Assembly (NCBI GenBank): GCA_964420735.1
Contig: CAYQUL010000001.1
Location: 1-51,938, forward strand
Source: an uncultured Gammaproteobacteria bacterium
GTDB lineage: Bacteria; Patescibacteriota; Microgenomatia; UBA8517
Reading direction: 5' to 3'
Length of the DNA stretch: 51,938 nucleotides
Shown: piece by piece, positions 950 to 20,049 of the stretch
Layout: the number at the start of each line of letters is the position of its first letter
Numbering within the stretch: the first letter of the stretch is position 1
The notes under the pieces: generated by a model
The model's database searches: none
What the model was told of the DNA's origin: nothing
Seen by the model: the letters and a program-made list of their open reading frames with translations, nothing else
Translations under genes and position numbers: made by a program

Positions 950-1599
950 ACACATCTACAAAATCAGCAGCACAGCTACACGAACACGTTCCACCTGATT
1001 GGTATTTTCAATCTATGAAAATTAACTTGGGGCAAAGGTATTGGCATAATCGCCGATTCTCAACAGTTATCGCTTTGTCAGAAAAGGTAAATGGGAAAAT
1101 TCTTGATATTGGATGCGCTGACGGAGTCTTTACCTACGAAATAGCAAAAAAAACAAAGGCTAAAAAAATAATTGGAATTGATGTGTTAAAGCCATCAATT
1201 GACTGGTCAAAGAAACACTGGGCAAAGAAGTCAAACCTTTCTTTTAAGGTAGGAAACGCTCATGAGCTTAATTACCCAGATAATACTTTTGACGCGGTGT
1301 ACGCACTGGAAGTACTTGAACACGTCCCGGAACCGATTAAAGTTTTAAAAGAAGTAAAACGTGTTTTGTCTCCTGGGGGATATGCAATCTTTTTAGTTCC
1401 TTCGGACAACAAATTGTTTCAAGGAATATGGTTTTTGTGGACGAAGTTTTGGAGAGGGAAGATTTGGGACGATTGTCATATTCAATCATACAAAGAGCAT
1501 GCCCTTGGAAAGTTATGTAAAAAAGCAGGCCTCACTCTCGAGGTTGATGACACATTTATATTAGGCATGCTTAACGTTGTTAAAGTGAGAAAAGTATGA
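946..1599 (+). CDS. Class I SAM-dependent methyltransferase (Methyltransf_11-like)
   Basis: SAM motif I 'ILDIGCADGVFT' and downstream 'AVYALEVLEHVPEP'. ATGA overlaps on both sides. Confidence 0.85.
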   Translation: MNTSTKSAAQLHEHVPPDWYFQSMKINLGQRYWHNRRFSTVIALSEKVNGKILDIGCADGVFTYEIAKKTKAKKIIGIDVLKPSIDWSKKHWAKKSNLSFKVGNAHELNYPDNTFDAVYALEVLEHVPEPIKVLKEVKRVLSPGGYAIFLVPSDNKLFQGIWFLWTKFWRGKIWDDCHIQSYKEHALGKLCKKAGLTLEVDDTFILGMLNVVKVRKV

Positions 1600-2507
1600 G
1601 CAAAACGTTATCTGTTTCTGTCGTAATACCCAACTGGAATGGGCAGAGCCTTCTTCAAAAAAACCTGGCGGCGGTTCTTGCCTCAATGCGATATAAGAAA
1701 AACCAAATCGGTGAAATAATTATTGTTGATGACGGTTCAACCGATGACTCGGTCAAGTTTCTTAAAAAAGAATACGGTTCAAAAATTCGTTTGATTAAGC
1801 ACACTAAGAATAGAGGATTTGCCTCTTCAGTTAATAACGGTGTCAGAATGGCAAAAGGACAGTTGGTGTGTTTATTAAATACTGATGTAATACCCTCTCG
1901 TGAATTTTTAAGCCACGCACTTGCTCATTTTGAAGACAAAAGTGTTTTTGCTGTTGGTTTGCATGAAAAAGGTGCTGGGCCCGCGGTAGGTTTTTTTAAC
2001 AACGGATTTATTGAGCACAAAGGTGGAAAGGAGACGCAAAATGAGTCATTTTCTTTTTGGGCAAGTGGTGGCAGTGCCGTTTTTCGTCGTAGCCAGTGGA
2101 TGGAACTAAAGGGACTTGATGAAGAACTTTTGACGCCTTTCTATTGGGAAGATGTGGACTTGGGCTACCGGGCATGGAAACATGGCTACAAGATTGTTTG
2201 GGAGCCAAAAAGCATGGTGGAGCATCAACACGAAAGCACCATTAATAAAGACCGTTTTAAGGTTGCCTTTATGAATCGAGTGAAAGAGCGCAATCAGCTG
2301 TTGGTTATTTGGAAAAACATCACCAGTGATAAGTTATTTCGAAATCATATTCAGGGACTACTAAAAAGGATAATCTCCCATCCAGGATATATAAAAGTTG
2401 TTTTTGATGCATTGAAGTTTCGAAAACTGGTACTGGCTAAAAGAACCAGAGAAAAGAAAGAGAGCACCGTTTCAGATGAAGCAGTCTTTGCTAAATTTAG
2501 TATATGA
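1596..2507 (+). CDS. GT2 family glycosyltransferase (rhamnosyltransferase/WbbL-like)
   Basis: 'VSVVIPNWNG', 'IIIVDDGSTDDS', 'LLNTDV' (DxD region), 'WEDVDLGYRAW'. Confidence 0.85.
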   Translation: MSKTLSVSVVIPNWNGQSLLQKNLAAVLASMRYKKNQIGEIIIVDDGSTDDSVKFLKKEYGSKIRLIKHTKNRGFASSVNNGVRMAKGQLVCLLNTDVIPSREFLSHALAHFEDKSVFAVGLHEKGAGPAVGFFNNGFIEHKGGKETQNESFSFWASGGSAVFRRSQWMELKGLDEELLTPFYWEDVDLGYRAWKHGYKIVWEPKSMVEHQHESTINKDRFKVAFMNRVKERNQLLVIWKNITSDKLFRNHIQGLLKRIISHPGYIKVVFDALKFRKLVLAKRTREKKESTVSDEAVFAKFSI

Positions 2508-3295
2508 AACTGACCCTCTCAATTATTATCGTCAGTTATAACACTGAAAAATTGACGATTAGGTGTATTAAATCAATTGACAAACACAAACCTAAGTTTC
2601 CGTACGAAATTGTTGTTGTTGATAACGCCTCCACAGATGGCTCAGTAGTCTTACTACAGAAACTGAAAAATAAAACGCTTACTATTATTAAAAACAAAAC
2701 CAATCAGGGTTTTTCAAAAGCAAACAACCAGGGGATAGCCAAAGCAGACGGAGAGTTTATTTTACTTTTAAACTCTGATACTGAAATTATCGATGACTGT
2801 TTAACTACTTTAGTTACTTTTGCAAAAGAGCACAACGATGCTGGTGTTGTTGCCCCGCAATTGTTGAACGCTGACCGCACAGTTCAGGCTTCCATCTTTC
2901 GACTCCCCACTATCTCTCGTGCAGTCTCCCAATATTTACTCAAAAACAGAGGAATACTTACAAAGTATTCGCTCTCCGGTGACAAAGCCATAAAAGTTGA
3001 ATCAGTCGTTGGCGCAGCTTTTCTTATCACTCCCCAATCTCGGAAAAAAGTTGGTGTTTTAGACGAAAAATACTTTATGTACTTTGAGGATTTGGATTAT
3101 TGCAAAAAAGTAAATGAAAATAACCTTGCAGTTTATTATTTGCCTTATGCACAGGTTATTCACCTTCATGGAGCAAGTGGTAAGGGAAGCGTCAACAATC
3201 TTTTAATTGAGTCAAGCAAAAAATACTTTGGAATTGTGAGATACTATTTATACACATTTGTTTTGTGGATTGGACAAAAATATGGTGAAAACTAA
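2504..3295 (+). CDS. GT2 family glycosyltransferase
   Basis: 'LSIIIVSYNT', 'VVVDNASTDGS', 'LLNSDTE', 'FEDLDYCKK'. Confidence 0.85.
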   Translation: MKLTLSIIIVSYNTEKLTIRCIKSIDKHKPKFPYEIVVVDNASTDGSVVLLQKLKNKTLTIIKNKTNQGFSKANNQGIAKADGEFILLLNSDTEIIDDCLTTLVTFAKEHNDAGVVAPQLLNADRTVQASIFRLPTISRAVSQYLLKNRGILTKYSLSGDKAIKVESVVGAAFLITPQSRKKVGVLDEKYFMYFEDLDYCKKVNENNLAVYYLPYAQVIHLHGASGKGSVNNLLIESSKKYFGIVRYYLYTFVLWIGQKYGEN

Positions 3296-5042
3296 TACAA
3301 CTCCGTTATGGAAACAAACCAAGTTTATTTTACTGTTGATTGTTGTTGCTGCCGCAGTCCTGCGTTTAGCTGGCTTGACGCAAGTGCCTGTTTCGCTCTT
3401 TGGAGATGAACTTGATGTTGGCTATCACGCGTATTCATTCTTAAAAACTGGGAAAGACTATTCAGGGAATTCCCTTCCGATGCACTTTCAGAGTTTAGCT
3501 GAGTGGCGCACTCCGCTTTATCTTTACGCTGCCGTCCCAACCGTTGCAATTTTTGGAATTAGTCCACTTGGCGTCAGGCTACCAGCTGCACTATTTGGAA
3601 TAGCAACTATTCCTTTGTTTTATCTTCTCGTTAAGGAGATTGTCGGTGGAGGGGTTGAGACAGATCGTGCACGCAAACTTGGACTGTTTGCAGCTTTTTT
3701 GCTTGCCTTCTCACCTTGGCACATTCAATACAGTCGAGCAGCTTTTGAAGTTACCCAGTTGTTGTTCTTCTTTATAGGGGGTATGTATTTTTTTCTTCGT
3801 GCACTGAGGGACAAGGGGTCTTTGCTGTGGCTGTCAGGGATTTTCCTTGGACTTATGCCGTGGGTGTATAGTACTGCAAAACTTTTTTTGCCATTTTTTC
3901 TTGTTGCAATGGCAGTTCTTTATTTTAAAGAAATCTTTAAATTGCCCAAACGTGCTCTGCTTATTGGTGTCTTGTCACTTGGATTGGTACTTACTCCAAT
4001 TACCTGGAGTACCTTGTTTGGTGGTGGAACACAACGATTCAACTACATAAGTGTTTTTTCGGACCCCACGGTAGAGCCTGAAATTGGTACGGCAAGAGGA
4101 ACAGATGCACATAATCGAGGGGAAACCGGAACTGGTCTTAACCCAACCGTTATTGATAGAGGATTTCACAACAAATTCACCTATTGGGGTGAGACAGTTT
4201 TGCATAACTACTTTATGCCTTTTTCATCCGAATTTCTCCTGTTAAGAGGAGACCCCAATCCTCGTCACTCAATTGAAGGAATGGGAGAGTTTTATAAATA
4301 CGAAATTATTGGTCTTATTGCAGGACTTGCCTTTTTTCTTACCAAAAGCGAAAACAAAAAAAGCAAATGGCTCATTGCCTTGTGGACCTTACTTGGGGTC
4401 ATTCCATCAAGCCTTACCAGAGATGGAGGAAACCACGCAACTCGTTTAATCTTGATTCTTCCTCCCCTTTTGTTTTTGGTTTCGTATGGATTTTACTATC
4501 TTGTTTCATCACAAAAGAGATTGAAAGTGCCACTTATTGGTTTATATATAATTGTCTTTATCCTTTCCTTTGTTTCATATCAGCACTTATATTGGGTACA
4601 CAACCCGTCACAGTCTGAGAGGTGGTGGCACTATGGTTGGGGACCGGCAATTAGTGAAGTAAAACAAATACAGTCTGAGTTTGATAACGTCATTATAACC
4701 AGTGCTGACGAGCCTCCCTGGATCTTTTTTGCAGCTTGGTATGAATTTGATCCTGTACAGTGGCACCAAGGGTATCCAATGAAGAAACACAATATCCCGG
4801 GTTTTGGCGATATCAGTTATATAGGTAAATTCTCGTTTGGTAATTTTGAAGGTAAAAAAGGGCTATATGACTGGGGTAAAATACTAGACGACAAAACGCT
4901 TTACTTAGCCTCAGCAAAGGAAGTAAACGTTAACCTGATCGCTGAGCCTGAGCGAACACCAAAGGACCTAAAGATGATTAAGTCGTTTGCCTATCCTTCA
5001 GGTGAACCTGCTTTCTATCTATTTACTGGTGTTGCCAGATGA
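3282..5042 (+). CDS. GT-C membrane glycosyltransferase, GT39/PMT_2 (ArnT/PMT-like), paralog 1 of 6
   Basis: First periplasmic loop 'FGDELDVGYHAYSFLKTGKDYSGNSLP' carries an acidic DE pair. 'FSPWHIQYSR', many TM helices and a soluble C-terminal domain are present. ATG at 3282 is preferred over the TTG-extended 3258. Confidence 0.8.
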   Translation: MVKTNTTPLWKQTKFILLLIVVAAAVLRLAGLTQVPVSLFGDELDVGYHAYSFLKTGKDYSGNSLPMHFQSLAEWRTPLYLYAAVPTVAIFGISPLGVRLPAALFGIATIPLFYLLVKEIVGGGVETDRARKLGLFAAFLLAFSPWHIQYSRAAFEVTQLLFFFIGGMYFFLRALRDKGSLLWLSGIFLGLMPWVYSTAKLFLPFFLVAMAVLYFKEIFKLPKRALLIGVLSLGLVLTPITWSTLFGGGTQRFNYISVFSDPTVEPEIGTARGTDAHNRGETGTGLNPTVIDRGFHNKFTYWGETVLHNYFMPFSSEFLLLRGDPNPRHSIEGMGEFYKYEIIGLIAGLAFFLTKSENKKSKWLIALWTLLGVIPSSLTRDGGNHATRLILILPPLLFLVSYGFYYLVSSQKRLKVPLIGLYIIVFILSFVSYQHLYWVHNPSQSERWWHYGWGPAISEVKQIQSEFDNVIITSADEPPWIFFAAWYEFDPVQWHQGYPMKKHNIPGFGDISYIGKFSFGNFEGKKGLYDWGKILDDKTLYLASAKEVNVNLIAEPERTPKDLKMIKSFAYPSGEPAFYLFTGVAR

Positions 5043-5725
5043 TACTTTATCTTCTTATAGTCCTTTTTGTGCCCTGGACTGTTGTGCTACTAACTAACCC
5101 ACCAATTTTTCTGTTGGTTCTAGCAACAACTATCGTTTCTATTTTGTTTTCCCAAAAAAGAAGGATTTTAACTGTTCTAGTTTTGCTTTTATGTCTTTTT
5201 CAGTATTTTCAGATTACTAAAACCCCACTTGTTTCGAACTCTCCAGTTCATCAAGTTGAAATAAAACACAACTTGGCTGCATACCCGCCATTACCACTAC
5301 CAGTTGCCTACTGGTTTGAACAAAAAGATATTACACAAAAGATATTTGCATTGTCACTTAGAAGCGGAGAGGTGTTAAGCCCTTCACTTTACTTTTTTTC
5401 AAATCACCCCAGAGAACGGGCGGGATATCGTGAATTTGAGAAATTTCAGTATGTACTTCTTCCATTCTTTATATATGGACTTTTTTCGCTTTTCAGGAAG
5501 AAAAAGCACTACCTATTATTTATACTTTTTGTGCCAGGATTTATTTTGTTTACTTTGTTTGGAAATAGAGGAGAGGCAGGACCATTTTTGTTTTTTCCCT
5601 TTATTGCCTCGTTAACTTTTTACGGACTTCGTGAGTTTTTCCCAAAACGAAACAAAGCCTTGATTGCTTTCCTTGTTGTTTTTGTACTTGTCACTATTCA
5701 AACTTATGCGTATACCATCTCTTAA
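5039..5725 (+). CDS. Small polytopic membrane protein; resembles the central segment of the flanking GT39-like paralogs but lacks the DE loop
   Basis: Hydrophobic throughout. 'SPSLYFFSNHPRERAGYREFEKFQYVLLPFFIYGLF' lines up by eye with 'SSEFLLLRGDPNPRHSIEGMGEFYKYEIIGLIAGLAF' of paralog 1. ATGA overlap with the upstream gene. Confidence 0.5.
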   Translation: MILYLLIVLFVPWTVVLLTNPPIFLLVLATTIVSILFSQKRRILTVLVLLLCLFQYFQITKTPLVSNSPVHQVEIKHNLAAYPPLPLPVAYWFEQKDITQKIFALSLRSGEVLSPSLYFFSNHPRERAGYREFEKFQYVLLPFFIYGLFSLFRKKKHYLLFILFVPGFILFTLFGNRGEAGPFLFFPFIASLTFYGLREFFPKRNKALIAFLVVFVLVTIQTYAYTIS

Positions 5726-7391
5726 AATCACGTTGATTGAACTTGCTTTAATTTTTGCTGTTGGAGCATTAGTCTTTTTTATTAAACTTTCTACAATTCC
5801 TTCTGGCATGTATATTGATGAAACGCTACCTGCTTATAGCGCTTACTCAATCATCAAGACTGGCCGCGATGAATATGGAAAAGTGTTTCCGCTGGTTTTC
5901 CGTTTTTACGGGTCGTATAACCCTCCACTCTTTATTTACCTTACTGCTATTTTTGAGTCGGTATTAGGACTCACCCCGCTAGCTGTTCGTTTACCTTCAT
6001 CACTTGCCGGACTTTTAAGTGTTATTCCAATCTATCTACTTTTGAAAGACAAACTTCTTAAAAATTCGCTCACGTCATTTGTCTCTGGGATCTTTTTTGT
6101 AATAACACCCTGGATTGTTTTACATAGTCGAGTTGGGTACGAAGTAAGCCTTGGATATCTACTACTCTCCCTTGGTGTTTATTTTACTTATCGAGGTTTG
6201 ACCCAGGGCAAATATCTAGCAGTGGGTATGATGTTTTTGTCATTATCAACGTATGCCGCTTACGCTGAGCGGTTTATTGTCCCATTTTTTATTATCGGAA
6301 TACTCATTTTCTTTCAGCGCAGTCTATTAATCATAAAAAACAAAACAAACTTGCTTATTTGTGCTTTGGTTGGTCTTGTTACACAAATCCCTAATCTTTG
6401 GCTTGTCACAACTCCGGCATTTTTCCCAAAACAAAATTTAGTTGGAAGTGGCATAGTTGCAGCCTCTGCCGAGAAAATCGCCCATTTTCTGCCTTACCAC
6501 GTGAGTTTCATTCTTGCATTTCTTCGTGAGTTTCTGTCTCAATATGTAACTTATTTTTCACCACAATCTCTGTTTTTTGTTCCAGATCCAGATTTGCAAC
6601 GTTCAATTCCGTACCTCTCTGTCTTTTATGTTTGGATGATTATCCCATTTTTCATTGGCTGTTTTGCTTTATATAAAAATTACAAAACCACCTTAGGAAA
6701 AGTCATTCTAACTTTGCTTATCGTGTCCCCAATTCCTGCTGCGTTAACTCTTGACCCTTTTTCAACCCATCGGGCACTTCCACAGCTTTTGCCACTGTTT
6801 CTTATTATTGGTTTAGGTATAGATTGGCTTTTAGTTAAAACTACTAGGGCTCGTGGATTACTTTTGGTTGTGATTGTTTTTGCCATATCACTTCTTTTTC
6901 TTTGGAGAAGCTATTTTGTACTTATGCCCTATACCAGAGCACAATATTGGGGATATGGACATGAAGCGTTAACTGTTTTTATCCAGAATCACCCCAATGA
7001 CCAATTTGTAATTGATCAAACGAGAATTAAGCCTGTATACAGCCAACTCGCCTTTTATATGAAATTTGACCCAGCTGAATTTCAAAAAAGCATTGACCCG
7101 AGGCTGGTCACAAATTACTATAATAACCTGCCGTTTAGTGGTCACTTTACCTTTGGAAATATTGATACTCGTGGCATAGTTTGGGAAAGTGATATATACC
7201 GTGACCTTATTCTTGTGGGGGACGACTTGACTATTTCAGACAAACAAGCAGAAGAGCACGCGCTGACTCAAGTGTTTACAATTAATGACCCTAGAGGAGA
7301 TACCCTTTTTAAGGGCTTTAAAACAAACCCCGCAAAAAAATGTAGAATAAGTAATTATGCGAGTGAAAAATGCGCTAGTTTTAAACCGTAA
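5706..7391 (+). CDS. GT-C membrane glycosyltransferase, GT39/PMT_2-like, paralog 2 of 6
   Basis: 'YIDETLPAYSAYSIIKTGRDEYGKVFP', 'ITPWIVLHSR', 'YVTYFSPQSLFF', C-terminal 'FYMKFDPAEF'. ATG at 5706 is preferred over the extended 5664. Confidence 0.8.
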   Translation: MRIPSLKITLIELALIFAVGALVFFIKLSTIPSGMYIDETLPAYSAYSIIKTGRDEYGKVFPLVFRFYGSYNPPLFIYLTAIFESVLGLTPLAVRLPSSLAGLLSVIPIYLLLKDKLLKNSLTSFVSGIFFVITPWIVLHSRVGYEVSLGYLLLSLGVYFTYRGLTQGKYLAVGMMFLSLSTYAAYAERFIVPFFIIGILIFFQRSLLIIKNKTNLLICALVGLVTQIPNLWLVTTPAFFPKQNLVGSGIVAASAEKIAHFLPYHVSFILAFLREFLSQYVTYFSPQSLFFVPDPDLQRSIPYLSVFYVWMIIPFFIGCFALYKNYKTTLGKVILTLLIVSPIPAALTLDPFSTHRALPQLLPLFLIIGLGIDWLLVKTTRARGLLLVVIVFAISLLFLWRSYFVLMPYTRAQYWGYGHEALTVFIQNHPNDQFVIDQTRIKPVYSQLAFYMKFDPAEFQKSIDPRLVTNYYNNLPFSGHFTFGNIDTRGIVWESDIYRDLILVGDDLTISDKQAEEHALTQVFTINDPRGDTLFKGFKTNPAKKCRISNYASEKCASFKP

Positions 7392-8631
7392 GTTGGTTTT
7401 GCTGTTACTTTGTGGAATTGCTTTTAGAGTTCTGCTTTTCAGTGTGGCCAGGCACGGTGACATCAATAATAATCTTTCGTGGGGAGAGGAACTGATTAGG
7501 CGGGGGGCTAACGGCTTTTATGAAGGCCTGTCTTGGCCATTTTCATCTCCCAATCAGCCGCCACTCTATTTGTATCTTTTTGCAATTGTTTCAGCCCTGA
7601 CAAGCTTCGTTGGTTCAAGTATTCATTATTTGAATGAAAACCTTGGTGCTTTCCCTTCGTCTCTAGTGTGGTGGTGGAGCACAAATGGAGAACTCCTTTT
7701 TGCTAAAATTCCAAGTATTTTAGCCGATACAGCAATTGCGGCTGTTTTATATCGTTTTTTTTCAGATAAAAAACAAGGACTGCTTGCGGCTGCACTTTGG
7801 CTTATTAATCCAGTTGTTTGGTACAACTCAGGAATCTGGGGAGGAACCGACTCTATTGTAAATTTACTAGGTCTTATCTCATTTTACTTTCTATTTCACA
7901 AAAGACTAGTAAAAGCTTCAGTGTTTTTGGTTTTGAGTCTGCTTTTTAAGGGTTCCCTCGCGCTTTTTGTTCCGTTGTGGGTTCTTGTTGCAGTGTACCA
8001 AGGATTTTCGGCTCACACATTTGGTAAAGCAGTCCTTACCTGCGCCTTGGTAACTATTCTTGTTGCGTTTCCGTTTCGTCCTTCTCTTGATTTACCCGTT
8101 TGGCTGTTTAATCTGTACACCCAACGCTTTTTCCCTGGAGAAATTGGTAGTTTAACTGCAAACGCTTTTAACTTCTGGTGGATTGTTGACTCAGGAAAGA
8201 CACTAGACTCCACAACATTTTTTGGCATAACAGCACGAATGTGGGGAGTTATCACTACGGTTTTAATCTATCTATTAGTGCTACTTAAAACAAAACGAAA
8301 TATGTCATCAGTTCGTGTCTTTTTTGCAGCAAGCATAATTGCACTCGTATCGTTTCTTTTTATGACACGCATCCATGAGAGATATCTCTACCCATTGTTC
8401 CCGTTTTTAACCTTGCTTGCAGTTAAGTACAAGCGTGCACAAATTACGTTGGCTGTTTTAAGTTTCGTAAACCTTGCTAACCTCTATCATCTTTTTTGGG
8501 CGCCAGGAGTTGAGAGTCTTAAAATGCTTTATACAAAACCCATGTTTGCAATCAGTTTGTCAATCGTGTCTCTTGTAGTATCACTTGTATTTTTCATCGG
8601 TTTTATAACATTTAAGGAAAGCAAAAGCTAG
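7357..8631 (+). CDS. Putative GT-C membrane glycosyltransferase (DUF2029/GT87 or PIG-V-like, COG5542-like)
   Basis: About 10 TM helices. The early loop 'GDINNNLSWGEELIRRGANGFYEG...SPNQPPLYLYLF' resembles the D..W...G..fY...PPlY pattern of that group. Confidence 0.5.
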   Translation: MRVKNALVLNRKLVLLLLCGIAFRVLLFSVARHGDINNNLSWGEELIRRGANGFYEGLSWPFSSPNQPPLYLYLFAIVSALTSFVGSSIHYLNENLGAFPSSLVWWWSTNGELLFAKIPSILADTAIAAVLYRFFSDKKQGLLAAALWLINPVVWYNSGIWGGTDSIVNLLGLISFYFLFHKRLVKASVFLVLSLLFKGSLALFVPLWVLVAVYQGFSAHTFGKAVLTCALVTILVAFPFRPSLDLPVWLFNLYTQRFFPGEIGSLTANAFNFWWIVDSGKTLDSTTFFGITARMWGVITTVLIYLLVLLKTKRNMSSVRVFFAASIIALVSFLFMTRIHERYLYPLFPFLTLLAVKYKRAQITLAVLSFVNLANLYHLFWAPGVESLKMLYTKPMFAISLSIVSLVVSLVFFIGFITFKESKS

Positions 8632-8676
8632 TACATGTCGTTTTGTTCTAACTCACTTTTTTAGTCAAAAAAACGC

Positions 8677-8682
8677 TATACT
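8677..8682 (+). promoter_or_regulatory. -10 box TATACT, 6 nt upstream of ATG 8689 (leaderless-type spacing)
   Basis: Lies in the only real gap (57 nt) within the paralog array. No convincing -35 and no SD. Confidence 0.35.
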
Positions 8683-8688
8683 ATCCTC

Positions 8689-10299
8689 ATGTACAAATGG
8701 TTTTTCATGTTGATTTTTGTCTTAGCCTTTCTCCTGCGTGTTGTAAACCTTGGAGGTTCGCCGGCAGGTTTTACTCCAGATGAAGCTTCTTTTGGGTATG
8801 ACGCCTACTCGATTATCAAAACAGGACGAGATCAGTGGGGTAGTTTAACTCCGCTGACGTTTAAATCATTTGGAGACTACAAACTGCCAGTTTATACATA
8901 TCTAGCCATCCCTAGTGTAAGTGTGTTTGGTTTAAACGAGTTTTCGGTACGACTACCTAATGCACTTCTCGGGACAGCTGCTGTAATAGCTACTTATTTT
9001 CTTGTTCTCGAACTGTTTGGTAAAAGAGCAAAAAGAATGGCACTAATTGCCGCCCTCTTTTTGGCAGTGTCTCCTTGGCACATCGCTCTCTCTCGTGGTG
9101 CATTTGAGGCAAACCTCACCACTTTTTTCTTAACAGTTGGCATGGTGTTCTTTTTAGCAGCTAGAAGACGACAAAGTCTTTTGACTGTTGCTATGTTGTT
9201 TTTTGGAATCAACCTTTTTACCTATCACTCCGCACGCATGGTGACACCACTTATTGTCATGGCCCTCTTGTGGATTTATAGATTAGACTTTCCAAGAACA
9301 AAAAAATTCACCCTGGCAAGCGCGGTCTTTTTGTTACTTCTGGTGACTGCAGTTGTGAGCGTTTTAGGAGGTTCCGGTGGACGGGCAGCTACCTCAACTT
9401 TAGCATCTCAAAACCTTGGATCAGGTGAAACTCGGGCTCATGTTGTGATAAGTGGCATGCCAAGTTTTGTTGCACGAGTAATATATAACGAGCCTTCTTT
9501 TAAATTGACAAAAGCTGTTGCTCAATATTTTACCTACTTTTCCCCTCAGTTTCTTCTTTTTGATGGGCCTCATGAAGTAACGTACGGAATGGTACCGGGT
9601 ATTGGTGTATTGACCATTTTTGAGTGTCTCGGTCTGGTTGGTTTATTCTTTTTGAGGAAAAATGAAAAGCCATTGCAGGTACTTTTCTTTTGGGTTTTTT
9701 TTGGCGCTATCCCTGCTGCAATTTCAATTGGTCCAGGGCACGCGGCAAACAGAGCCGCAATTCTGATGCCTGCATATCAAATAGTTGCGACATATGGTCT
9801 GTTTTTACTTTCAACTAGACTGCCGGAACTTAAGCGCTTCTTTGTCTCTTTTGTGTTTCTAGTTTCCATTTTTGGAATAGGTATTTTCTCTCGATATTAT
9901 TTTGAGCAAAAGACAGTCGCAAATTATGGAATGATGTACGGAATGAGAGAGTTATACCTCTTTTTACAAGAATACCCAACTAAACATGTTGTCTTGAGTA
10001 GGTCGTTGTCAGAAGCACACATATACGCGGCTTTCTTTGACCCGATTGAGCCAAAACTTTTTCAACAGGCAAGCAAAAATTGGAATATTGAAGAAAAACG
10101 GCTTGCTTGGGTTGATCAACAGGAGAGCTATTTTGTCGGTCGATATACCGTTAACTCCATTGATAAAATTCGTGACTTTACGTACGACAACACCTTTATT
10201 GTCGGGAAACCTGGAGAAATGCCAGAGAATGCCCGCATTGTTAAAACAATTATGTCACCCAATGCGAGTGTCCTCTGGGTTGTTGCCGAAAGACCATGA
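8689..10299 (+). CDS. GT-C membrane glycosyltransferase, GT39/PMT_2-like, paralog 3 of 6
   Basis: 'FTPDEASFGYDAYSIIKTGRDQWGSLTP', 'AVSPWHIALSRGAFE', 'YFTYFSPQFLLF', 'IYAAFFDPIEPKLF'. Preceded by a 57-nt gap containing a -10 box. Confidence 0.85.
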   Translation: MYKWFFMLIFVLAFLLRVVNLGGSPAGFTPDEASFGYDAYSIIKTGRDQWGSLTPLTFKSFGDYKLPVYTYLAIPSVSVFGLNEFSVRLPNALLGTAAVIATYFLVLELFGKRAKRMALIAALFLAVSPWHIALSRGAFEANLTTFFLTVGMVFFLAARRRQSLLTVAMLFFGINLFTYHSARMVTPLIVMALLWIYRLDFPRTKKFTLASAVFLLLLVTAVVSVLGGSGGRAATSTLASQNLGSGETRAHVVISGMPSFVARVIYNEPSFKLTKAVAQYFTYFSPQFLLFDGPHEVTYGMVPGIGVLTIFECLGLVGLFFLRKNEKPLQVLFFWVFFGAIPAAISIGPGHAANRAAILMPAYQIVATYGLFLLSTRLPELKRFFVSFVFLVSIFGIGIFSRYYFEQKTVANYGMMYGMRELYLFLQEYPTKHVVLSRSLSEAHIYAAFFDPIEPKLFQQASKNWNIEEKRLAWVDQQESYFVGRYTVNSIDKIRDFTYDNTFIVGKPGEMPENARIVKTIMSPNASVLWVVAERP

Positions 10300-11951
10300 A
10301 ATATCTACAGGCCCACAAAAATTCCTTTAAGTGGATACTCCTTGTTCTTGTTATTTCAGTTCCGACCTTTGCGCGGATGCTTAGGCCGGGAATTTACTCA
10401 ATGCAGGACTTCCCGTACTTTAGGGTTGTTGAATATACAAAATGTATACAAAATGGCAGTTTTCCTTGTCGCTGGGCGCCTGACGCTGGTCTTGGGTATG
10501 GCGAGCCAGTTTTTAATTTTTATTCCCATGTTCCTTTTTTCCTCGGTGCCGTAGTGTCAGAAGTTGTAGGTAACAGTGTCACCGCTGTAAAGGTTGTTTT
10601 TGCCTTCTCTTTGTTTGCCTCAGCACTTTCGATGTTTTTCTTAGCCAGAAACGTTTGGAAGAATAATTGGTCAGCACTTGTTTCCAGTGTTTTATATCTT
10701 TATGCCCCGTATCGGGCGGTAGATGTCTGGGTGAGAGGTGCACTTCCTGAATCTTTTGCATTTGTTTTGCTTCCTCTGATTTTGTTTTTCTTTGAAAAGT
10801 TTCGAGAAACTAAAAAAATTGTTTGGTTAGTTCTGTTAGTGGTGTCTCTGTCCAGCCTGATACTAACCCACAATCTTTCTGTTTTATTGTTTGGTGGTGT
10901 CATTGTAGTTTGGTTTGTTCAAGGACTCTTGAGTAGTCGAGACAAGAAAGTCACTCTTGCTGTCGCCTTTGCGGTATTGTTGTCTTTAACATTAAGTGCT
11001 TTTTATCTTTTTCCTGCGCTTTACGAGTCGCACCTTGTTAATCTTCAAACAACAACAACTGGATATTTTGATTTTCGTGCGCATTTTGTTACGGTTCCAC
11101 AACTTTTTATTTCACGTTTTTGGGGATATGGTGGGTCCACATGGGGTGCTGAAGATGGCTTAAGTGTATCAATTGGTCAAGTTCAAGCCATTGTACTAAC
11201 TATAACGCTTGTTGTTGCCTTTGTTAGTTTTGTTATGAAAAAAACAAAAACAAACGAAGCACGTACCTCGCTAATCTTGTCGCTCTTAGCGTTCTTTTTT
11301 CTTCTGTTAACTCACAACAAGTCTGCATTTATGTGGGAGGCATTGTCTCCAGTCATGAAATATATCCAGTTTCCTTGGCGCTTTTTAGGAGTGTCACTTT
11401 TTTGCTTAAGTCTTTCCGCAGGCTACATTATTAAAACAATAAGCACAAAAAAAATGGTGATTACTTCTATTTTAGTTTGTACACTAGCTGTTTTATTAAA
11501 CATGGCCTTCTTTAGGGAAGACTTGTGGTTTAATCGAAATGACCAGACGATGCAGTCTGGTGATATGTGGGTTGAACAAACAAGAGCTTCAATCGGTGAC
11601 TATTGGCCGATATATGGAAAGATACCAACAGACCCTGCACCAAACATATCGCAAATAAGTAATAAGCGTACGGATCGATTTTTGTTTACTGTAAACGAAG
11701 GTCAAAGCGAAGTTCATGTTCCCGTAGCGTATTTTCCCGGTTGGACAGCACGACTTAGTGATGCAGTCATTCAAACACATCCAAATAGTGATGGTCTCAT
11801 TACTTTTTATGCAAAAACCCCGGGAATTTATTCACTCCGCTTTGACAACACCACAATCCGTGAGTGGGGGAACGCAGTTTCACTTTTTTCATTTATGAGT
11901 TTACTCTGTATCTATAAGTTTTACCGGTATCAAGAAAAGAAAAATTCATGA
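10296..11951 (+). CDS. Polytopic membrane protein, PTPS-related-domain-like (PF10131-like), putative GT-C
   Basis: 'RWAPDAGLGYGEPVFNFYSHVPFFLG' resembles the conserved N-terminal block of the membrane 'PTPS-related' family. More than 10 TM helices plus a soluble C-terminal domain and a final TM. ATGA overlaps on both sides. Confidence 0.45.
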   Translation: MKYLQAHKNSFKWILLVLVISVPTFARMLRPGIYSMQDFPYFRVVEYTKCIQNGSFPCRWAPDAGLGYGEPVFNFYSHVPFFLGAVVSEVVGNSVTAVKVVFAFSLFASALSMFFLARNVWKNNWSALVSSVLYLYAPYRAVDVWVRGALPESFAFVLLPLILFFFEKFRETKKIVWLVLLVVSLSSLILTHNLSVLLFGGVIVVWFVQGLLSSRDKKVTLAVAFAVLLSLTLSAFYLFPALYESHLVNLQTTTTGYFDFRAHFVTVPQLFISRFWGYGGSTWGAEDGLSVSIGQVQAIVLTITLVVAFVSFVMKKTKTNEARTSLILSLLAFFFLLLTHNKSAFMWEALSPVMKYIQFPWRFLGVSLFCLSLSAGYIIKTISTKKMVITSILVCTLAVLLNMAFFREDLWFNRNDQTMQSGDMWVEQTRASIGDYWPIYGKIPTDPAPNISQISNKRTDRFLFTVNEGQSEVHVPVAYFPGWTARLSDAVIQTHPNSDGLITFYAKTPGIYSLRFDNTTIREWGNAVSLFSFMSLLCIYKFYRYQEKKNS

Positions 11952-13609
11952 AATATATACAAAAAAATTATCTATTGGTGTTAATTGCTGTGTTTGCCTT
12001 TCTTTTACGGGTAACAAACATTTCCACGCTTCCTCCTTCACTAAATTGGGATGAAATTTCGCATGGATATAACGCTTACTCAATCCTTAAGACCGGAACT
12101 GATGAGTGGGGAGTCTTACCACTTTCTAACTTTAGAGCATACGGAGATTATCCACTCACAGCTAACTTATACCTGACGGTTCCTTTTATCGCTATCTTTG
12201 GGTTAACTGAGTTTGCAATTCGATTTCCTCATGTACTTTTAGGCGTTGGTACAGTGATTGCCACTTATTTTTTAGCACTTGGTATTACAAAACAAAAACG
12301 AATTGCACTCCTTTCATCATTTCTAATTGCAATCGACCCTTGGACACTGTTTACCTCACGATTTGTATTACAAAGCAATCTTTCAGTATTTCTATTAGTA
12401 ACGGCTCTTGCCTGTTTTGTTCATTTCCGTTCAAAAGCAGTGATATCAATTTCTGTGTTTTTCTTGGGGTTAAGTTTATTTGCATATCACACCACTCGTA
12501 TCGTAACTCCGTTAATTGGTTTATGCCTGGTAATTCTCTACAAAGGCAAGGTTATTACCAAGTCAACAATCGTCATAAGTAGCCTTTTTTTGCTTGCACT
12601 GGGGGCAGTCTTACTTTCTGACTCCTCTCGCGCCAGAGCCAACGAAGTTTTCCTTTTAAACCCTGGCGTCATTGCGTCAATCGAAGCACAACGGAATGCA
12701 TCAACCCACTCACCGTTATTAACCAAAGTTTTATTTAACAGGCCGGTTTACTTAGTAACTCACGTGGTAAGAAACTACGTGGATTACTTCAGCCCACAGT
12801 TTTTATTTTTGTCAGGTGGCACCCAATACCAATTTAGTATTCCAGGGCATGGCTTAATGTATTGGATTTGGCTCCCATTTTTCTACTATGGTTTGATTTT
12901 GGTTTTAAAAAAAGGAATTGTGGAGAGAGACAAACTATATCTACTGTTGCTTTGCTGGTTATTAATTGCCCCTATCCCTGCAAGTATTACAACAGAGCGA
13001 ATGGCAGTACTCCGAGCAACCGCAATGTTGCCACTCCCAGAGCTTTTTGCAGCTATTGGCTTTTACGCTGTCTATGCAAAAATTGAAAAACATTTTAATA
13101 AAAAACGTGCGGCAATAGCCCTTATTGTGGCACTTTTTGTTTCTTTGTTATTGCTCTTTAGGTATCTGACAGTTTACTCAACCAGTTATATAACTAACTT
13201 CTCCTGGGCATGGCAGTATGGATATAAAGATGCTGTCTTGTTTGCCACGGATCACTATCAAGCTTATGACAAAATTATTGTTACTAAAAAATACGGCGAA
13301 CCACACGAGTTTTTCTTGTTTTACGGCAAGACAGACCCGGGGGTGTATAAAAGCGACGCAGCTTTAAACAGATATACTCAATCAAACTGGTGGTGGGTTG
13401 ATGGATTTGATAAATATCTCTTTGTGAATGATTGGCAAATACCCAAAAGCGGCAACTTGTTTGTTACAGAGAGCAAAAAAACATACGACTGTACATCAGA
13501 TCACTGTTTACTAATCACATCACCGTCAAATGCACCTACTAACTGGAAGCTTGTAAAAACGATATACTTCCTAGATAAGCAGCCGGCATTTGAATTGTAT
13601 GAAAATTAA
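11948..13609 (+). CDS. GT-C membrane glycosyltransferase, GT39/PMT_2-like, paralog 4 of 6
   Basis: 'LNWDEISHGYNAYSILKTGTDEWGVLP', 'AIDPWTLFTSR', 'YVDYFSPQFLFLSGG', 'YGEPHEFFLFYGKTDPGVY'. Confidence 0.85.
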   Translation: MKYIQKNYLLVLIAVFAFLLRVTNISTLPPSLNWDEISHGYNAYSILKTGTDEWGVLPLSNFRAYGDYPLTANLYLTVPFIAIFGLTEFAIRFPHVLLGVGTVIATYFLALGITKQKRIALLSSFLIAIDPWTLFTSRFVLQSNLSVFLLVTALACFVHFRSKAVISISVFFLGLSLFAYHTTRIVTPLIGLCLVILYKGKVITKSTIVISSLFLLALGAVLLSDSSRARANEVFLLNPGVIASIEAQRNASTHSPLLTKVLFNRPVYLVTHVVRNYVDYFSPQFLFLSGGTQYQFSIPGHGLMYWIWLPFFYYGLILVLKKGIVERDKLYLLLLCWLLIAPIPASITTERMAVLRATAMLPLPELFAAIGFYAVYAKIEKHFNKKRAAIALIVALFVSLLLLFRYLTVYSTSYITNFSWAWQYGYKDAVLFATDHYQAYDKIIVTKKYGEPHEFFLFYGKTDPGVYKSDAALNRYTQSNWWWVDGFDKYLFVNDWQIPKSGNLFVTESKKTYDCTSDHCLLITSPSNAPTNWKLVKTIYFLDKQPAFELYEN

Positions 13610-15266
13610 CAGAAGTGTTGTTGCACTCACCATAATTATTCTTCTCTCAGCCTTTTTAAGGTTTAATCTGTTAAGCAGTGTTCCACCACACCTGACACCT
13701 GATGAGGCTTCCCTGGGATACAATGCCTACTCAATTTTAAAAACAGGGCGTGATGAATATGGTCAGGTGCTCCCCTTAATTTTTAAGTCGTTTGGTGATT
13801 ACAAACCAGGGCTTTATGTATACGCCACAATTCCTTTTGTCGCCATCTTTGGGTTAAATGAGTTTGCAGTGCGAGCGGCAAGTGCCTTGAGTGGAGTGAT
13901 AGCAGTCTTTTTGATGTACTTTATTTCAAAAAAACTATTTTCCGAAAGCAAACATTTTTCTATTCCACTTATTTCAAGTTTGTTACTTGCAGTGTCACCT
14001 TGGCACATTATGTTTTCTCGTGGAGCTTGGGAAATTAATCTTTCGTTAACCTTAACGATGGTAGGTATTTATTTTTTTCTAAAATTCCCAACTAACATTA
14101 AAAATCTCTATTTTGCTGCATTCTTTTTTGCATTAACGCTTGCTACCTATCAAGGAGCAAAATTATCAACTGGCATTGTTGTTGTCATTTTGTTACTTAC
14201 TCATTTACCCCAGACTCGAAAAATACCAGTCAAGAGTTTTGTAATAGCCGCAGTTATCGGGATACTCGTCTCACTACCGATTATCACCAGTTTGTTTACC
14301 GGTAAATCAGGACGGCTGACTGTTTTTAGTGTCTTTTCGTACCCGAGAGCAGAAAGTTATATTACTCACTTTATTTCTGAGTCAGGTGTCGCACGAAACT
14401 CTGTTTCCTACTATCTCTATTATTCTGAGACACAAAACTTCGCTCGTGGAATTTTAGGAAGGTGGTTCAACCACTTTTCAGGAAGATTCTTGTTTTTTGA
14501 AGGTGACTGGGCAAATCCACGACATACGGCACCTAACCACGGGGTATTAAACCTTTTTGATATCGTTGTCTTTCCTGTTGGTATTTTTGCAATTGCCAAG
14601 AACTGGAGAAAAAAGCACGTAGTTCTTGTTGCCATCTGGTTACTTACGGCGTGTCTGCCTGCAGTCTTGTCTCGTGATCAAGTGCATGCGGTGCGTTCCT
14701 ACAATATGGTCATACCAGCTATATGGACAATTACTTTAGGATTGGAATATTTGCTAAATAGTGTAATTAACAGGAAAAAAGTTTTTTTAGCTGGAACACT
14801 TATTCTCTGCTACATCGCAGGCGTTATCTATTTTATAGACGCTTTCTTTATTCACATTCCCGCACATGCCTCAAAGCTGTGGGAATATGGATACAAGCAA
14901 ATAGTACAAACGGTTATGCCGCTTGAGTCACAGTATGACCATATCTATATTCAGCAAAGTTATTCCCAGCCGTACATCTATTTTCTGTTTTTTGAGAAAG
15001 TAGACCCTGCGACATATCAACAAGAAGCAAGACTAGCTGAAAGTGTCTCTGGGGATGTTGGTCAAGTTGCTAAGGTAGGAAAAATATCGTTTATCGATGT
15101 TGATTGGTCACGAGTTCGTGGAGAGAAGGGGAGTATTATTGTTGGGGATACACTTCACATACCGGTGAGTGACTCGAAAGAAGGAGCTGAATTTCATATC
15201 ATCAAAGAAATACCGTATGTTGATGGAAAAAATATCGCATTTCGCGTTATTGCAATTAAAAAATGA
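13599..15266 (+). CDS. GT-C membrane glycosyltransferase, GT39/PMT_2-like, paralog 5 of 6
   Basis: 'LTPDEASLGYNAYSILKTGRDEYGQVLP', 'AVSPWHIMFSRGAWE', 'YSQPYIYFLFFEKVDPATY'. ATG at 13599 is preferred over TTG 13590. Confidence 0.85.
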   Translation: MKINRSVVALTIIILLSAFLRFNLLSSVPPHLTPDEASLGYNAYSILKTGRDEYGQVLPLIFKSFGDYKPGLYVYATIPFVAIFGLNEFAVRAASALSGVIAVFLMYFISKKLFSESKHFSIPLISSLLLAVSPWHIMFSRGAWEINLSLTLTMVGIYFFLKFPTNIKNLYFAAFFFALTLATYQGAKLSTGIVVVILLLTHLPQTRKIPVKSFVIAAVIGILVSLPIITSLFTGKSGRLTVFSVFSYPRAESYITHFISESGVARNSVSYYLYYSETQNFARGILGRWFNHFSGRFLFFEGDWANPRHTAPNHGVLNLFDIVVFPVGIFAIAKNWRKKHVVLVAIWLLTACLPAVLSRDQVHAVRSYNMVIPAIWTITLGLEYLLNSVINRKKVFLAGTLILCYIAGVIYFIDAFFIHIPAHASKLWEYGYKQIVQTVMPLESQYDHIYIQQSYSQPYIYFLFFEKVDPATYQQEARLAESVSGDVGQVAKVGKISFIDVDWSRVRGEKGSIIVGDTLHIPVSDSKEGAEFHIIKEIPYVDGKNIAFRVIAIKK

Positions 15267-16903
15267 TTAAACCATTTCTAGTTAAGCACAAAATATTACT
15301 TGCTATTCTTCTCATTTCAACCGTATTGCGGTTTTATAACCTTGGCAATTTCCCTGCCTTTAACGCTGATGAAGCGGCTTTGGGATATAACGCTTACTCA
15401 CTACTTAAAACGGGCAAAGATGAGCACGGTAACCCGTGGCCGATACATTTCCAATCATTTAATGACTGGAAGCCGGGACTTACGGTGTATTTAGTCATGC
15501 CACTAGTTAGTGTCTTTGGATTAAACGAGTGGAGTGTAAGGGCGCTTCCCGCCGCGTTTGGGGTGATGACTGTTTTAGCCTTGTATTTACTAGTAAGTGA
15601 AATGACTGCTAATAAGAGAAAAGGACTTGCCTTGTCTGTTGCGTTTCTTCTTGCAGTGTCACCTTGGCATATTCACTTTTCTCGTGGTGCGTGGGAGGTA
15701 AACATTGCAACTGCATTTGTAACCTGGGGAATGCTGTTTTTATTTAAGTCTTTAAGAGACAAAAAATATCTGTATTTGGCTGTAATTGTTTTTGTCCTCT
15801 CGCTTTATACCTATCACGCAACAAGAATTGTAGCCCCTCTCCTTGTTTTTGGTTTCTTTATCTTCAATTTCAAAAAGATGGTTAAAAATTCGAAATATTT
15901 ATTTACTGCAATTTTCCTAGGCATATTACTTTGCATTCCACTTATTGTTGATATGGCAAAACCAGAGGCACTCTCTCGTGCAGCCGGTGTTGGCCTTTTT
16001 GCTGATCCTGGTCCTCGATCAAGAATAGAAGAACAAAGAGGTGAACACACAAACTTTCAAGGAATTGTACCAAAAATACTGCACAACAAAGCCGTAAATT
16101 ATGGCTTGGCATTTTTAGACAACTGGACTGCACATTTTCATGGAGAATTCCTTTTTCTCTCAGGAGATGAAATTCAACGTAACAGAGTACCTGAAACTGG
16201 TCAGCTGTATACCATAGAAATACTTTTCTTGTGTGTGAGTTTAGTTGTTCTTTCCAGTACTAATAAACTTTTTTCACGTAAGCCGATTTTACTCTGGCTT
16301 TTAGTTTCCCCAATTGCGGCAGCCCTTACCTTTCAGGCGCCTCACGCACTTCGTGCTCAAAATATGATAATTCCACTTACCTTTCTTTCTGGGTATGGAC
16401 TGTACTATCTCTGGAGTTACCCATTTGTCCGTAAACAGCTTATTTTGCTCACAAGAGTTGTACTTGTGGTCGTAATGGCGGTAAGTGTTAGTCGTTATTT
16501 GCTCATGTACTATGGACACATGTCTCAGGAATATTCTTATTCGTCACAATATGGTGTTAAAGAGCTGGTAAGCTATGTAAAAGGCAACAGTGACCGTTAT
16601 GAACATGTGCTTGTCACCGACCGTTATGACCAGCCATATATACTGTTCCTGTTTTACTTAAAATATCCGCCAGAACTTTTCCAAAAGGAAGGGAAATTAA
16701 CGGACAAAGATGGTTTTGGTTTTTCAACTGTACGAGCTTTCGGTAAATACGAATTCCGTTCAATAAAATTTGATGAAGATCGTCCTAAAGTCACAAATGC
16801 ATTGATTGCCGGGACTAAGGAGGAAATACCTGAAGAGGCTAATATTATTAAAGATATTTACGGGACAAACAAGTTTCTCTATTTTAGAGTCGTAGCTAAC
16901 TAA
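15263..16903 (+). CDS. GT-C membrane glycosyltransferase, GT39/PMT_2-like, paralog 6 of 6
   Basis: 'FNADEAALGYNAYSLLKTGKDEHGNPWP', 'AVSPWHIHFSRGAWE', 'YDQPYILFLFYLKYPPELF'. ATGA overlap with paralog 5. Confidence 0.85.
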   Translation: MIKPFLVKHKILLAILLISTVLRFYNLGNFPAFNADEAALGYNAYSLLKTGKDEHGNPWPIHFQSFNDWKPGLTVYLVMPLVSVFGLNEWSVRALPAAFGVMTVLALYLLVSEMTANKRKGLALSVAFLLAVSPWHIHFSRGAWEVNIATAFVTWGMLFLFKSLRDKKYLYLAVIVFVLSLYTYHATRIVAPLLVFGFFIFNFKKMVKNSKYLFTAIFLGILLCIPLIVDMAKPEALSRAAGVGLFADPGPRSRIEEQRGEHTNFQGIVPKILHNKAVNYGLAFLDNWTAHFHGEFLFLSGDEIQRNRVPETGQLYTIEILFLCVSLVVLSSTNKLFSRKPILLWLLVSPIAAALTFQAPHALRAQNMIIPLTFLSGYGLYYLWSYPFVRKQLILLTRVVLVVVMAVSVSRYLLMYYGHMSQEYSYSSQYGVKELVSYVKGNSDRYEHVLVTDRYDQPYILFLFYLKYPPELFQKEGKLTDKDGFGFSTVRAFGKYEFRSIKFDEDRPKVTNALIAGTKEEIPEEANIIKDIYGTNKFLYFRVVAN

Positions 16904-16904
16904 C

Positions 16905-17768: not shown

Positions 17769-17834
17769 CTTCTTAGTATAAAAACTTATATCAGACAAGG
17801 AAGTTTCGTGTTTAGTTTTTGTATCAGAAAAAAA

Positions 17835-17846: not shown

Positions 17847-17849
17847 GGA

Positions 17850-20043: not shown

Positions 20044-20049
20044 AAATTA

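Follow-up and report, generated by a model that had tools for sequence, protein, structure and literature searches.

A conserved operon of diverged GT-C glycosyltransferase paralogs in Microgenomates

The DNA of interest is a 51,938-nucleotide stretch (contig CAYQUL010000001.1, positions 1 to 51,938, of assembly GCA_964420735.1), referred to throughout as the window, from an organism deposited as an uncultured Gammaproteobacteria bacterium and placed by GTDB within the Patescibacteriota (Microgenomatia; UBA8517). The window is a dense, mostly forward-strand run of genes of even base composition (GC 0.35-0.41). An earlier inspection (hereafter, the original prediction) drew attention to six tandem, co-directional paralogs between positions 3282 and 16903, resembling GT39/PMT_2 glycosyltransferases and interleaved with three other membrane proteins that begin at positions 5039, 7357 and 10296. 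All nine genes are present; the six copies (c1-c6) are full open reading frames (ORFs) on the forward strand. It is close to certain that the copies are intact, anciently diverged paralogs of the GT-C glycosyltransferase fold, carried in a conserved operon.

Family, motifs and fold of the six copies

The six proteins are 536-586 aa long (c3, at 536 aa, falls below the lower limit of 546 aa originally given). In the six-copy alignment, the invariant positions are D50, E51, Y56, A58, Y59, S60, K63, T64, G65 and D67 and, further along, P153, W154, S159 and R160 (c1 numbering, counted from the TTG start). The first-loop peptides quoted in the original prediction are exact and no copy has a disrupted catalytic Asp/Glu loop, the pair being invariant in all six. 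The second proposed block, 'SPWH..SR', stands in the looser form 'PW....SR' in six of six copies, while the literal 'SPWH' occurs in four. An Asp-Glu pair in the first loop is the PMT motif. Judging from the basic N-terminus and the helix order in the c6 model (below), we infer that this loop lies outside the membrane.

All six copies exceed a Pfam gathering cut-off: PMT_2 (PF13231; 26.1 bits) is passed by c1, c2, c3, c5 and c6 at 32.5-42.4 bits, and PMT (PF02366; 22.7 bits) by c1, c3 and c4, so that the family membership of c4 comes through PMT. The label GT39/PMT_2-like is thus sound at the Pfam level, but not in the strict GT39 sense. The bacterial Pmt equivalog (NCBIfam NF058602, PrMnsylTfPmt) is matched only by c4, at 18.6 bits against a cut-off of 800, and the ArnT equivalog (NF009784, GT83) only by c5, at 19 bits against 567. 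Agl23/TIGR03663 is the best NCBIfam match of c1, c5 and c6, yet at 33-46.7 bits it stays well under its cut-off of 126.25. No Pfam match to the MIR (beta-trefoil) domain was found in the six copies, whose sole soluble domain is C-terminal and alpha/beta.

An AlphaFold (AF2) model of c6, built on 45 sequences, has a pLDDT of 89 and a pTM of 0.90, and shows a helical membrane domain that leads into an alpha/beta domain at residues ~425-546. This agrees with the common architecture proposed originally, in which a GT-C membrane part is joined to a soluble domain at the C-terminus. When the model was compared with the PDB in Foldseek, the top 36 matches were all of the GT-C fold (GT-C enzymes and the GPI-transamidase subunit PIG-U), with E values down to 1.3e-7 and TM scores up to 0.56. 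They include STT3/PglB/AglB (E 1e-7 to 1e-5), Pmt4 (E 1.7e-5) and ALG12 (TM 0.56/0.62), as well as ALG9, EmbC, AftB and PimE. On the strength of this model, we regard the copies as predicted GT-C enzymes with an ArnT-like layout; by the curated models, they belong to neither ArnT nor Pmt in the strict sense.

Beyond the six copies, the window holds further relatives: the proteins at 29120-31198 and 37722-39920 also pass PMT_2/PMT, and those at 2-949, 7357-8631 and 10296-11951 join the family by profile comparison.

Divergence of the copies and conservation of the operon

Pairwise identity among the six copies is 23-33% at the protein level and 41-47% at the DNA level. The best-conserved loop of c5 and c6, originally judged by eye to be about half identical, in fact matches at 14 of 21 positions, with 33% identity over the whole proteins. 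To place the copies among their relatives, one genome per GTDB species was scanned; at least 597 relatives were returned, and the best 77 loci were analysed. These 77 are all from Microgenomates (Woese-, Davies-, Shapiro-, Ames-, Collier- and Gottesmanbacteria, and Levyibacteriota). When 304 family members from these loci were placed in a neighbour-joining tree, built from one MAFFT alignment, each window copy fell in its own clade of 21-80 sequences (c1 80, in 73 loci; c2 21; c3 53; c4 53; c5 37; c6 31), with a bootstrap membership Jaccard index of 0.85-0.96 and, for c5 and c6, exact clade recovery in 97.5% of bootstraps. A further 27 family members lie outside all six clades.

The copies are more similar to their own orthologs (median identity 33-46%, up to 66%) than to their neighbours in the window (at most 33%). 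For c1, identity reaches 64% with an ortholog from Woesebacteria. The c6 protein has 2,917 database relatives, among which orthologs are 55-62% identical and the nearest relative 79%; with the family profile, 6,447 of 1.84 billion cluster representatives are matched at E 1e-30. Every clade retains residues D36, E37, S46, T50, D53, R93, R141 and R364 (c6 numbering) in 85% or more of its members. Together, the separate ortholog clades and the retention of D36/E37 in all six bear out the original view that the duplications are old and the copies retained, and no copy looks like a dead enzyme from its sequence.

An exact 20-nt block shared by c5 and c6 had been singled out; it is found at 13986 and 15650 and nowhere else. 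As a sign of sequence exchange, it does not hold up. The longest exact run of each of the 15 pairs of copies was compared with 300 synonymous-codon resamplings, and this block, which lies in the conserved peptide LAVSPWH, is barely longer than the resamplings produce (P ~0.01 before correction for 15 pairs). A second run, of 18 nt, is shared by c4 and c6 (GGATATAACGCTTACTCA, at 12065-12082 and 15383-15400, encoding GYNAYS; P ~0.003 uncorrected). Gene conversion was rejected: both runs lie in the most conserved peptides, neither is convincing after the 15-pair correction, and DNA identity is 41-47%.

Mapping the ORFs of the 77 loci onto the genes of the window revealed a recurring order. Its 5' part runs [2-949 GT-C]-methyltransferase-GT2-GT2-c1-(5039-c2)-7357, and its 3' part continues from 7357 with c3-10296-c4-c5-c6-GT2-GT4-(18865)-Wzx-like-GT2 (21299)-GT4. 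This order is found in Woese-, Davies-, Shapiro-, Ames-, Collier- and Gottesmanbacteria. In the set of 44 loci extending at least 9.5 kb past c1, an ortholog of c4 is present in 36, of c3 in 32, of c5 in 28, of c6 in 24, of 7357 in 21, of 10296 in 17, and of c2 in 8 (inverted in 4); the order c1<c3<c4<c5 is seen in 23 of the 44. The core of the operon is c1, c3, c4, c5 and c6, while c2 with 5039, 7357, 10296 and occasional extra paralogs are accessory. In the 36 loci of at least 21 kb, from 36 other species, the median number of family paralogs is 5 (range 1-7), and that of all GT-C-like genes 7. Six in a row, thought exceptional at the outset, is therefore the normal state of the Microgenomates lineage.

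Many of the public metagenome-assembled genome records that carry the operon in full synteny (eight of the loci and others; TPA_asm and binchicken assemblies) are titled 'uncultured Gammaproteobacteria bacterium', which looks like placeholder or wrong taxonomy.

Neighbouring genes, with candidates for donor supply and flippase

The genes of the operon and three related genes further downstream are listed in Table 1. The co-directional block is tightly packed over ~23 kb, with seven ATGA start/stop overlaps and a largest gap of 81 bp; c4, c5 and c6 are linked by overlaps of 4-11 bp. Over the array itself GC is 0.39-0.40, without a compositional break. Between 946 and 23202, a Shine-Dalgarno-like purine run is not evident upstream of most gene starts, and a number of the likely starts fall 11-35 nt within the gene before them. 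When 3001-23000 was scanned, promoter-like sites were fewer than in shuffled sequence. Terminator-like sites in the same interval number 29, against 18.6 in shuffles (sd 4.0), but since nearly all of them lie inside coding sequence, the scan adds nothing on transcription units.

Table 1. Genes of the operon and related genes in the window, with coordinates and the evidence for each (SAM, S-adenosylmethionine).
Feature	Position	Strand	Evidence and remarks
GT-C-type membrane protein, 3' part, cut at contig end	2-949	+	Frame open from base 2; TTG at 41 is the start given by the ORF tool, not a real one
SAM-dependent methyltransferase, conserved upstream operon member	946-1599	+	Pfam Methyltransf_23/11, E 1e-24; same position in many loci
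GT2 (GT-A fold), conserved upstream of c1	1596-2507	+	Pfam Glycos_transf_2, E 3e-24
GT2 (GT-A fold), conserved directly upstream of c1	2504-3295	+	Pfam Glycos_transf_2, E 7e-28
Copy 1 (c1), PMT_2-type GT-C	3282-5042	+	586 aa from ATG; first start of the ORF tool, TTG 3258; PMT_2 35.2 bits, PMT 23.0 bits
228-aa membrane protein, accessory, paired with c2	5039-5725	+	hhalign 97.0% to family positions 302-416
Copy 2 (c2), PMT_2-type GT-C, accessory array member	5706-7391	+	561 aa (575 from TTG 5664); PMT_2 39.4 bits
ALG6/Gpi18-like GT-C of another subfamily, without soluble domain	7357-8631	+	hhalign 97.7%; AF2 and Foldseek
Copy 3 (c3), PMT_2/PMT-type GT-C	8689-10299	+	536 aa; PMT_2 42.4 bits, PMT 34.7 bits
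PF10131 (PTPS_related) polytopic membrane protein, GT-C-related	10296-11951	+	PF10131 55.7 bits
Copy 4 (c4), PMT-type GT-C	11948-13609	+	553 aa; PMT 40.5 bits; PMT_2 22.1, under cut-off
Copy 5 (c5), PMT_2-type GT-C	13599-15266	+	555 aa (558 from TTG 13590); PMT_2 32.5 bits
Copy 6 (c6), PMT_2-type GT-C, the copy modelled	15263-16903	+	546 aa; PMT_2 33.7 bits
GT2, cytoplasmic, conserved directly downstream of c6	16905-17768	+	Pfam; synteny c6-GT2-GT4 in many loci
GT4, cytoplasmic, conserved after that GT2	17850-18896	+	Pfam; synteny
392-aa polytopic membrane protein, possible further GT-C	18865-20043	+	Conserved position after GT4
Wzx/MOP-type polysaccharide flippase candidate	20050-21321	+	Polysacc_synt 57.2 bits, Polysacc_synt_3 56.1 bits; eleven hydrophobic segments
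Dpm1-like GT2, candidate polyprenyl-phosphate-sugar synthase	21299-22090	+	Best solved relative 5mlz
GT4, last conserved gene of the co-directional block	22075-23202	+	Glycos_transf_1 108 bits; 59% identical ortholog in one related locus (L058)
Seventh PMT_2-positive protein, 692 aa, outside the tandem array	29120-31198	+	PMT_2 41.9 bits
ArnC/GtrB-type polyprenyl-phosphate glycosyltransferase	31195-32133	-	phmmer against PDB: ArnC 9hwj, E 5.5e-49, full length; GtrB 5ekp, E 3e-33
Eighth PMT/PMT_2-positive protein, 732 aa	37722-39920	+	PMT 40.4 bits, PMT_2 28.2 bits

The fragment at the contig end aligns to the C-terminal 60% of its orthologs in four of the loci and to the c-family profile (hhalign 98.9% probability, E 1.4e-17, 334 columns). 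Its full-length orthologs (~510 aa, with a first loop starting 'LTFGYDQARDA') are GT-C-like, and the array thus has one further member upstream. Of the three interleaved proteins, that at 5039 aligns (hhalign) solely to the GT-C membrane domain, over its second half, and has only nine relatives among 5.8 billion proteins; in seven loci its counterpart adjoins a c2 ortholog, always just upstream. It has neither the catalytic first loop nor the soluble domain, and its 'LSPSLYFFSNHPRER' block echoes the 'YFSPQFLF..GD...R' of the copies. It may be half of an enzyme that has been kept, or else an accessory subunit. For the protein at 7357, no Pfam match was obtained and the NCBI label is 'hypothetical', while its homologs are named 'Gpi18-like mannosyltransferase' by JGI. 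Its AF2 model (pLDDT 90.2) finds yeast ALG6 first in Foldseek (6snh, TM 0.71), then GPI mannosyltransferase I, ALG3 and PimE, and on this model we take it to be a putative bacterial ALG6/PIG-M-like GT-C conserved within the array. The third, at 10296, aligns to the c-family with an hhalign probability of 96.3% (E 1.5e-9, 244 columns). Downstream of c6, the protein at 18865 reaches 20.1 bits against PMT_2, below the cut-off, and only 29-34% against the array family in hhalign.

GT2 synthases of the Dpm1/GtrB/ArnC type are, by homology, encoded alongside the GT-C genes. The nearest solved structure to the GT2 at 21299 is the Pyrococcus dolichyl-phosphate-mannose synthase 5mlz (E 1.9e-14, residues 12-236), followed by ArnC and GtrB; its best NCBIfam matches, PpgS and PgfS, are both under cut-off, and its ortholog in L058 is 72% identical. 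The ArnC/GtrB-type gene at 31195 and the PMT_2-positive gene at 29120 are convergent, their 3' ends overlapping by 4 bp, and to judge by homology the pair looks like a classical synthase and GT-C module apart from the main operon.

The rest of the contig encodes further GT2, GT4 and GT10 enzymes, seven SAM methyltransferases plus one of FkbM type, a PglF-like dehydratase, an epimerase, a deacetylase and a B12-radical-SAM enzyme. Between 23500 and 47300 these comprise at least seven GT2, one GT4, a fucosyltransferase-like GT10 (44054-45073), five class-I SAM methyltransferases and the FkbM type, the PglF/CapD-like dehydratase, the epimerase and the polysaccharide deacetylase; the B12-binding radical SAM enzyme lies on the reverse strand at 34690-36306. 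The gene content of this region suggests heavily methylated or otherwise modified sugars. Three more proteins (39862-42117, 47305-48981 and 48978-51860) are polytopic, with 8-12 hydrophobic segments, extensive soluble regions at the C-terminus, and acidic motifs in the first loop ('WKDDN', 'QQDEW' and 'DGLD'). The first ends in an F5/8 type C (discoidin) domain; the last is 960 aa long and has a final C-terminal hydrophobic segment. All three have a GT-C-like topology and match the array family profile weakly or not at all; they may represent GT-C subfamilies not yet described.

Proposed stepwise assembly of an envelope glycan, and the alternatives

Since distantly related genomes hold a separate ortholog of every paralog, arranged in a constant order, the copies most likely carry out distinct reactions that cannot stand in for one another, differing most likely in linkage, donor or acceptor position. 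To this extent the division of labour advanced in the original prediction stands, in that the copies appear non-redundant; which of acceptor, donor or linkage is the differing feature cannot be told from sequence. The reading that we favour, and consider probable, is that these non-interchangeable GT-C paralogs build, step by step, one lineage-conserved envelope glycan.

A mechanism along the following lines can be envisaged. Dpm1/ArnC-like cytoplasmic GT2 enzymes would load sugars onto polyprenyl phosphate, while other GT2 and GT4 enzymes may make a lipid-linked core. The lipid-linked sugars would then be flipped to the outer face of the membrane, for which the Wzx-like protein is a candidate, and there each GT-C paralog, using the invariant Asp-Glu of the first external loop, would transfer a sugar to an extracytoplasmic acceptor. 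The logic would be that of the ALG3/9/12/6/8/10 series in the lumen of the endoplasmic reticulum (ER), or of the mycobacterial Emb/Aft enzymes. A GT2 synthase, a flippase and a GT-C enzyme acting in turn is an established scheme (PMC11127046, PMC7389260, PMC12041528); compared with it, the GT-C component is here multiplied five- to ten-fold. Separately conserved copies in constant order are the trace to be expected of a multi-step pathway whose steps cannot replace one another.

Several points weigh against stepwise assembly. The function of every member is assigned by homology, and the data fit sequential action and parallel action on different acceptors alike. The copies have no solved or characterised close relative. 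The six-copy profile gave no match to PDB sequences at E 0.01, so the fold was tested by structure prediction, and the Foldseek matches of the c6 model share only 9-16% sequence identity with it. In the tree, a neighbour-joining one from a single MAFFT alignment, the clades of c1-c4 are recovered exactly in 8-30% of bootstraps, their membership being stable nonetheless. The strongest between-clade differences map, coarsely, to c6 residues 221-320 (the long loop before the F.G.FLF..GD block) and 481-520 (in the soluble domain), and only two positions are fixed within clades yet differ between them (c6 302 and 306), so a specificity switch or code is not demonstrated. As to the parts list, neither an initiating phosphoglycosyltransferase nor a GtrA-type flippase was found in the window (the 126-aa ORF at 42142 is soluble), and Wzx normally flips diphosphate-linked oligosaccharides, not monophosphate sugars.

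Among the alternatives, parallel protein O-glycosylation in the PMT/Pmt manner, with each enzyme serving its own set of secreted or surface proteins (pilins, S-layer, Ser/Thr-rich regions), strikes us as unlikely, if still worth serious thought. Passage of the PMT cut-off by c1, c3 and c4, the first-loop Asp-Glu and the presence of Pmt4 among the fold matches all speak for it, as does the glycosylation of Gram-positive Ser/Thr-rich regions by GtrB and a GT-C enzyme (PMC12041528). However, the curated bacterial Pmt model is missed by a wide gap (18.6 bits against 800), no MIR domain was found with Pfam, the GT2/GT4 genes and Wzx-type flippase in the operon are typical of oligo- or polysaccharide assembly, and independent enzymes would account less well than a pathway or complex for the fixed gene order and the translational overlaps. 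The overlaps among c4, c5 and c6, suggestive of stoichiometric co-translation, also accord with a second proposal, in which the array encodes subunits of hetero-oligomeric GT-C complexes comparable to Pmt1-Pmt2 or EmbA-EmbB. In most loci, c4, c5 and c6 co-occur in order, and dimers are found among the GT-C fold matches (the Pmt4 homodimer, Pmt1-Pmt2 and EmbA-EmbB). This proposal is compatible with stepwise assembly but, taken as the explanation of the array, has a low probability: with the catalytic loop in all copies, none looks purely structural, and orthologs of c3, c5 or c6 are missing from the locus in some genomes.

Still less probable, and by our estimate very much so, is a fast-evolving, horizontally shuffled diversity island of O-antigen or capsule type, in which copy number reflects antigenic or phage-evasion variation. 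Some fluidity does exist: most loci lack c2 and 5039, c2 lies inverted in some of the others, extra paralogs sit between core genes, 27 family members of the loci belong to none of the six clades, and genes for GT2, GT4, GT10 and methyltransferases form a mosaic in the 3' half of the window. Against this, the core order c1-c3-c4-c5-c6-GT2-GT4 is kept across candidate phyla between orthologs of 33-46% median identity, and base composition does not change over the array. Assembly duplication or pseudogene decay, finally, has next to no probability and we exclude it: with 41-47% DNA identity the copies are not collapsed or duplicated reads, all are full-length open frames with intact motifs, and the same array is present in dozens of independent assemblies.

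Relation to known systems and significance

The copies resemble ArnT (GT83; 5EZM/5F15) in layout, with a polytopic GT-C domain, a C-terminal soluble alpha/beta domain and a similar total length; 5f15 is the best length-normalised bacterial fold match of c6 (617 columns, TM 0.55/0.56), and databases label these proteins 'ArnT family'. In contrast, identity in the structural alignment is 9-10%, the curated ArnT model gives 19 bits against 567, and ArnT is normally a single gene in the arn operon, acting on lipid A, where 5-7 paralogs per locus are seen here. The Microgenomates lineage has been reported with a Gram-positive-like envelope (PMC6744442). With PMT/POMT (GT39) the copies share the Pfam families PMT/PMT_2 and the Asp-Glu in the first external loop; the eukaryotic PMTs are described as a paralog family with division of labour and dimers (PMC12586580, PMC12705809). 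The soluble domain of the copies is, however, C-terminal rather than in loop 5 and gives no MIR match, Foldseek aligns only ~255-270 columns of c6 to yeast Pmt1/2/4, and eukaryotic PMT genes are not in operons.

For the proposed logic, the nearest bacterial precedent is the mycobacterial EmbC-EmbA-EmbB/Aft set: tandem GT-C paralogs that use polyprenyl-phosphate sugar outside the membrane for distinct steps in one cell-wall glycan, with a fold that c6 matches (EmbC, EmbA/B, AftB). Yet the Emb proteins are ~1,050-1,100 aa long with large carbohydrate-binding domains, stand three in tandem rather than five to ten, and belong to other Pfam families with no detectable sequence relation beyond the fold. 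In the ALG series, several GT-C subfamilies act in succession on a flipped lipid-linked glycan, with dolichyl-phosphate sugars from Dpm1/Alg5-type GT2 enzymes; here, the 7357 model points to ALG6 (TM 0.71), c6 to ALG12/ALG9, and a Dpm1-like GT2 lies in the operon. The ALG genes are eukaryotic and dispersed, and what they share with the present genes is logic and fold, not orthology; no oligosaccharyltransferase (STT3/PglB) gene was identified in the window. Lastly, the three-component systems (a GtrB/CsbB/ArnC-type GT2, a GtrA/MATE flippase, and GtrC, YfhO, PgtC2 or GT136) have a parts list like that seen here, where synthase and flippase are candidates (PMC11127046, PMC7389260, PMC12041528). 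They differ in having one GT-C for one side-chain sugar, against 5-10 GT-C genes in a conserved operon, and in the flippase: the window yielded a Wzx/MOP-type candidate and no GtrA type.

Current database names for the proteins are 'glycosyltransferase family 39 protein', 'ArnT family', 'Gpi18-like mannosyltransferase' and 'hypothetical'. We found no description of a conserved multi-GT-C operon in the literature on glycosyltransferases of the candidate phyla radiation (CPR), Microgenomates or Patescibacteria; mention in Meheust et al. 2019 is limited to unnamed Microgenomates-enriched membrane families. The surprise lies chiefly in the share of the genome: the 52-kb window, nearly all glycan genes, would be ~5-6% of a genome of ~0.9 Mb, a size inferred from related complete Woesebacteria genomes (802-917 kb) on the assumption that this one is similar. 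The genomes of CPR bacteria are among the most reduced known. Given such reduction, and that at least five large paralogs are kept in order class-wide, the operon is very likely central to Microgenomates biology.

More broadly, and only tentatively, Microgenomates may possess a lineage-wide, vertically inherited glycan assembly line outside the membrane, a bacterial counterpart of the ER-lumenal ALG pathway, making a complex and conserved envelope glycan or glycoconjugate essential to these ultra-small, probably host-dependent cells. As part of the same tentative proposal, its GT-C enzymes would number five to ten and come from three or more subfamilies (ArnT/PMT-like, ALG6-like and PF10131), and Dpm1/ArnC-like synthases would feed it. 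If this is true, the glycan would have a role in, for example, envelope integrity or attachment. For the study of Microgenomates surface glycans, the operon offers a concrete, widely conserved target for asking which glycan is made, on which acceptor, and whether it mediates host attachment. The roughly six orthologous series of one GT-C subfamily, with hundreds of sequences each, are useful for finding the determinants of linkage and acceptor specificity, and a bacterial case of multi-step GT-C assembly encoded in one operon would be of use to glycobiology.

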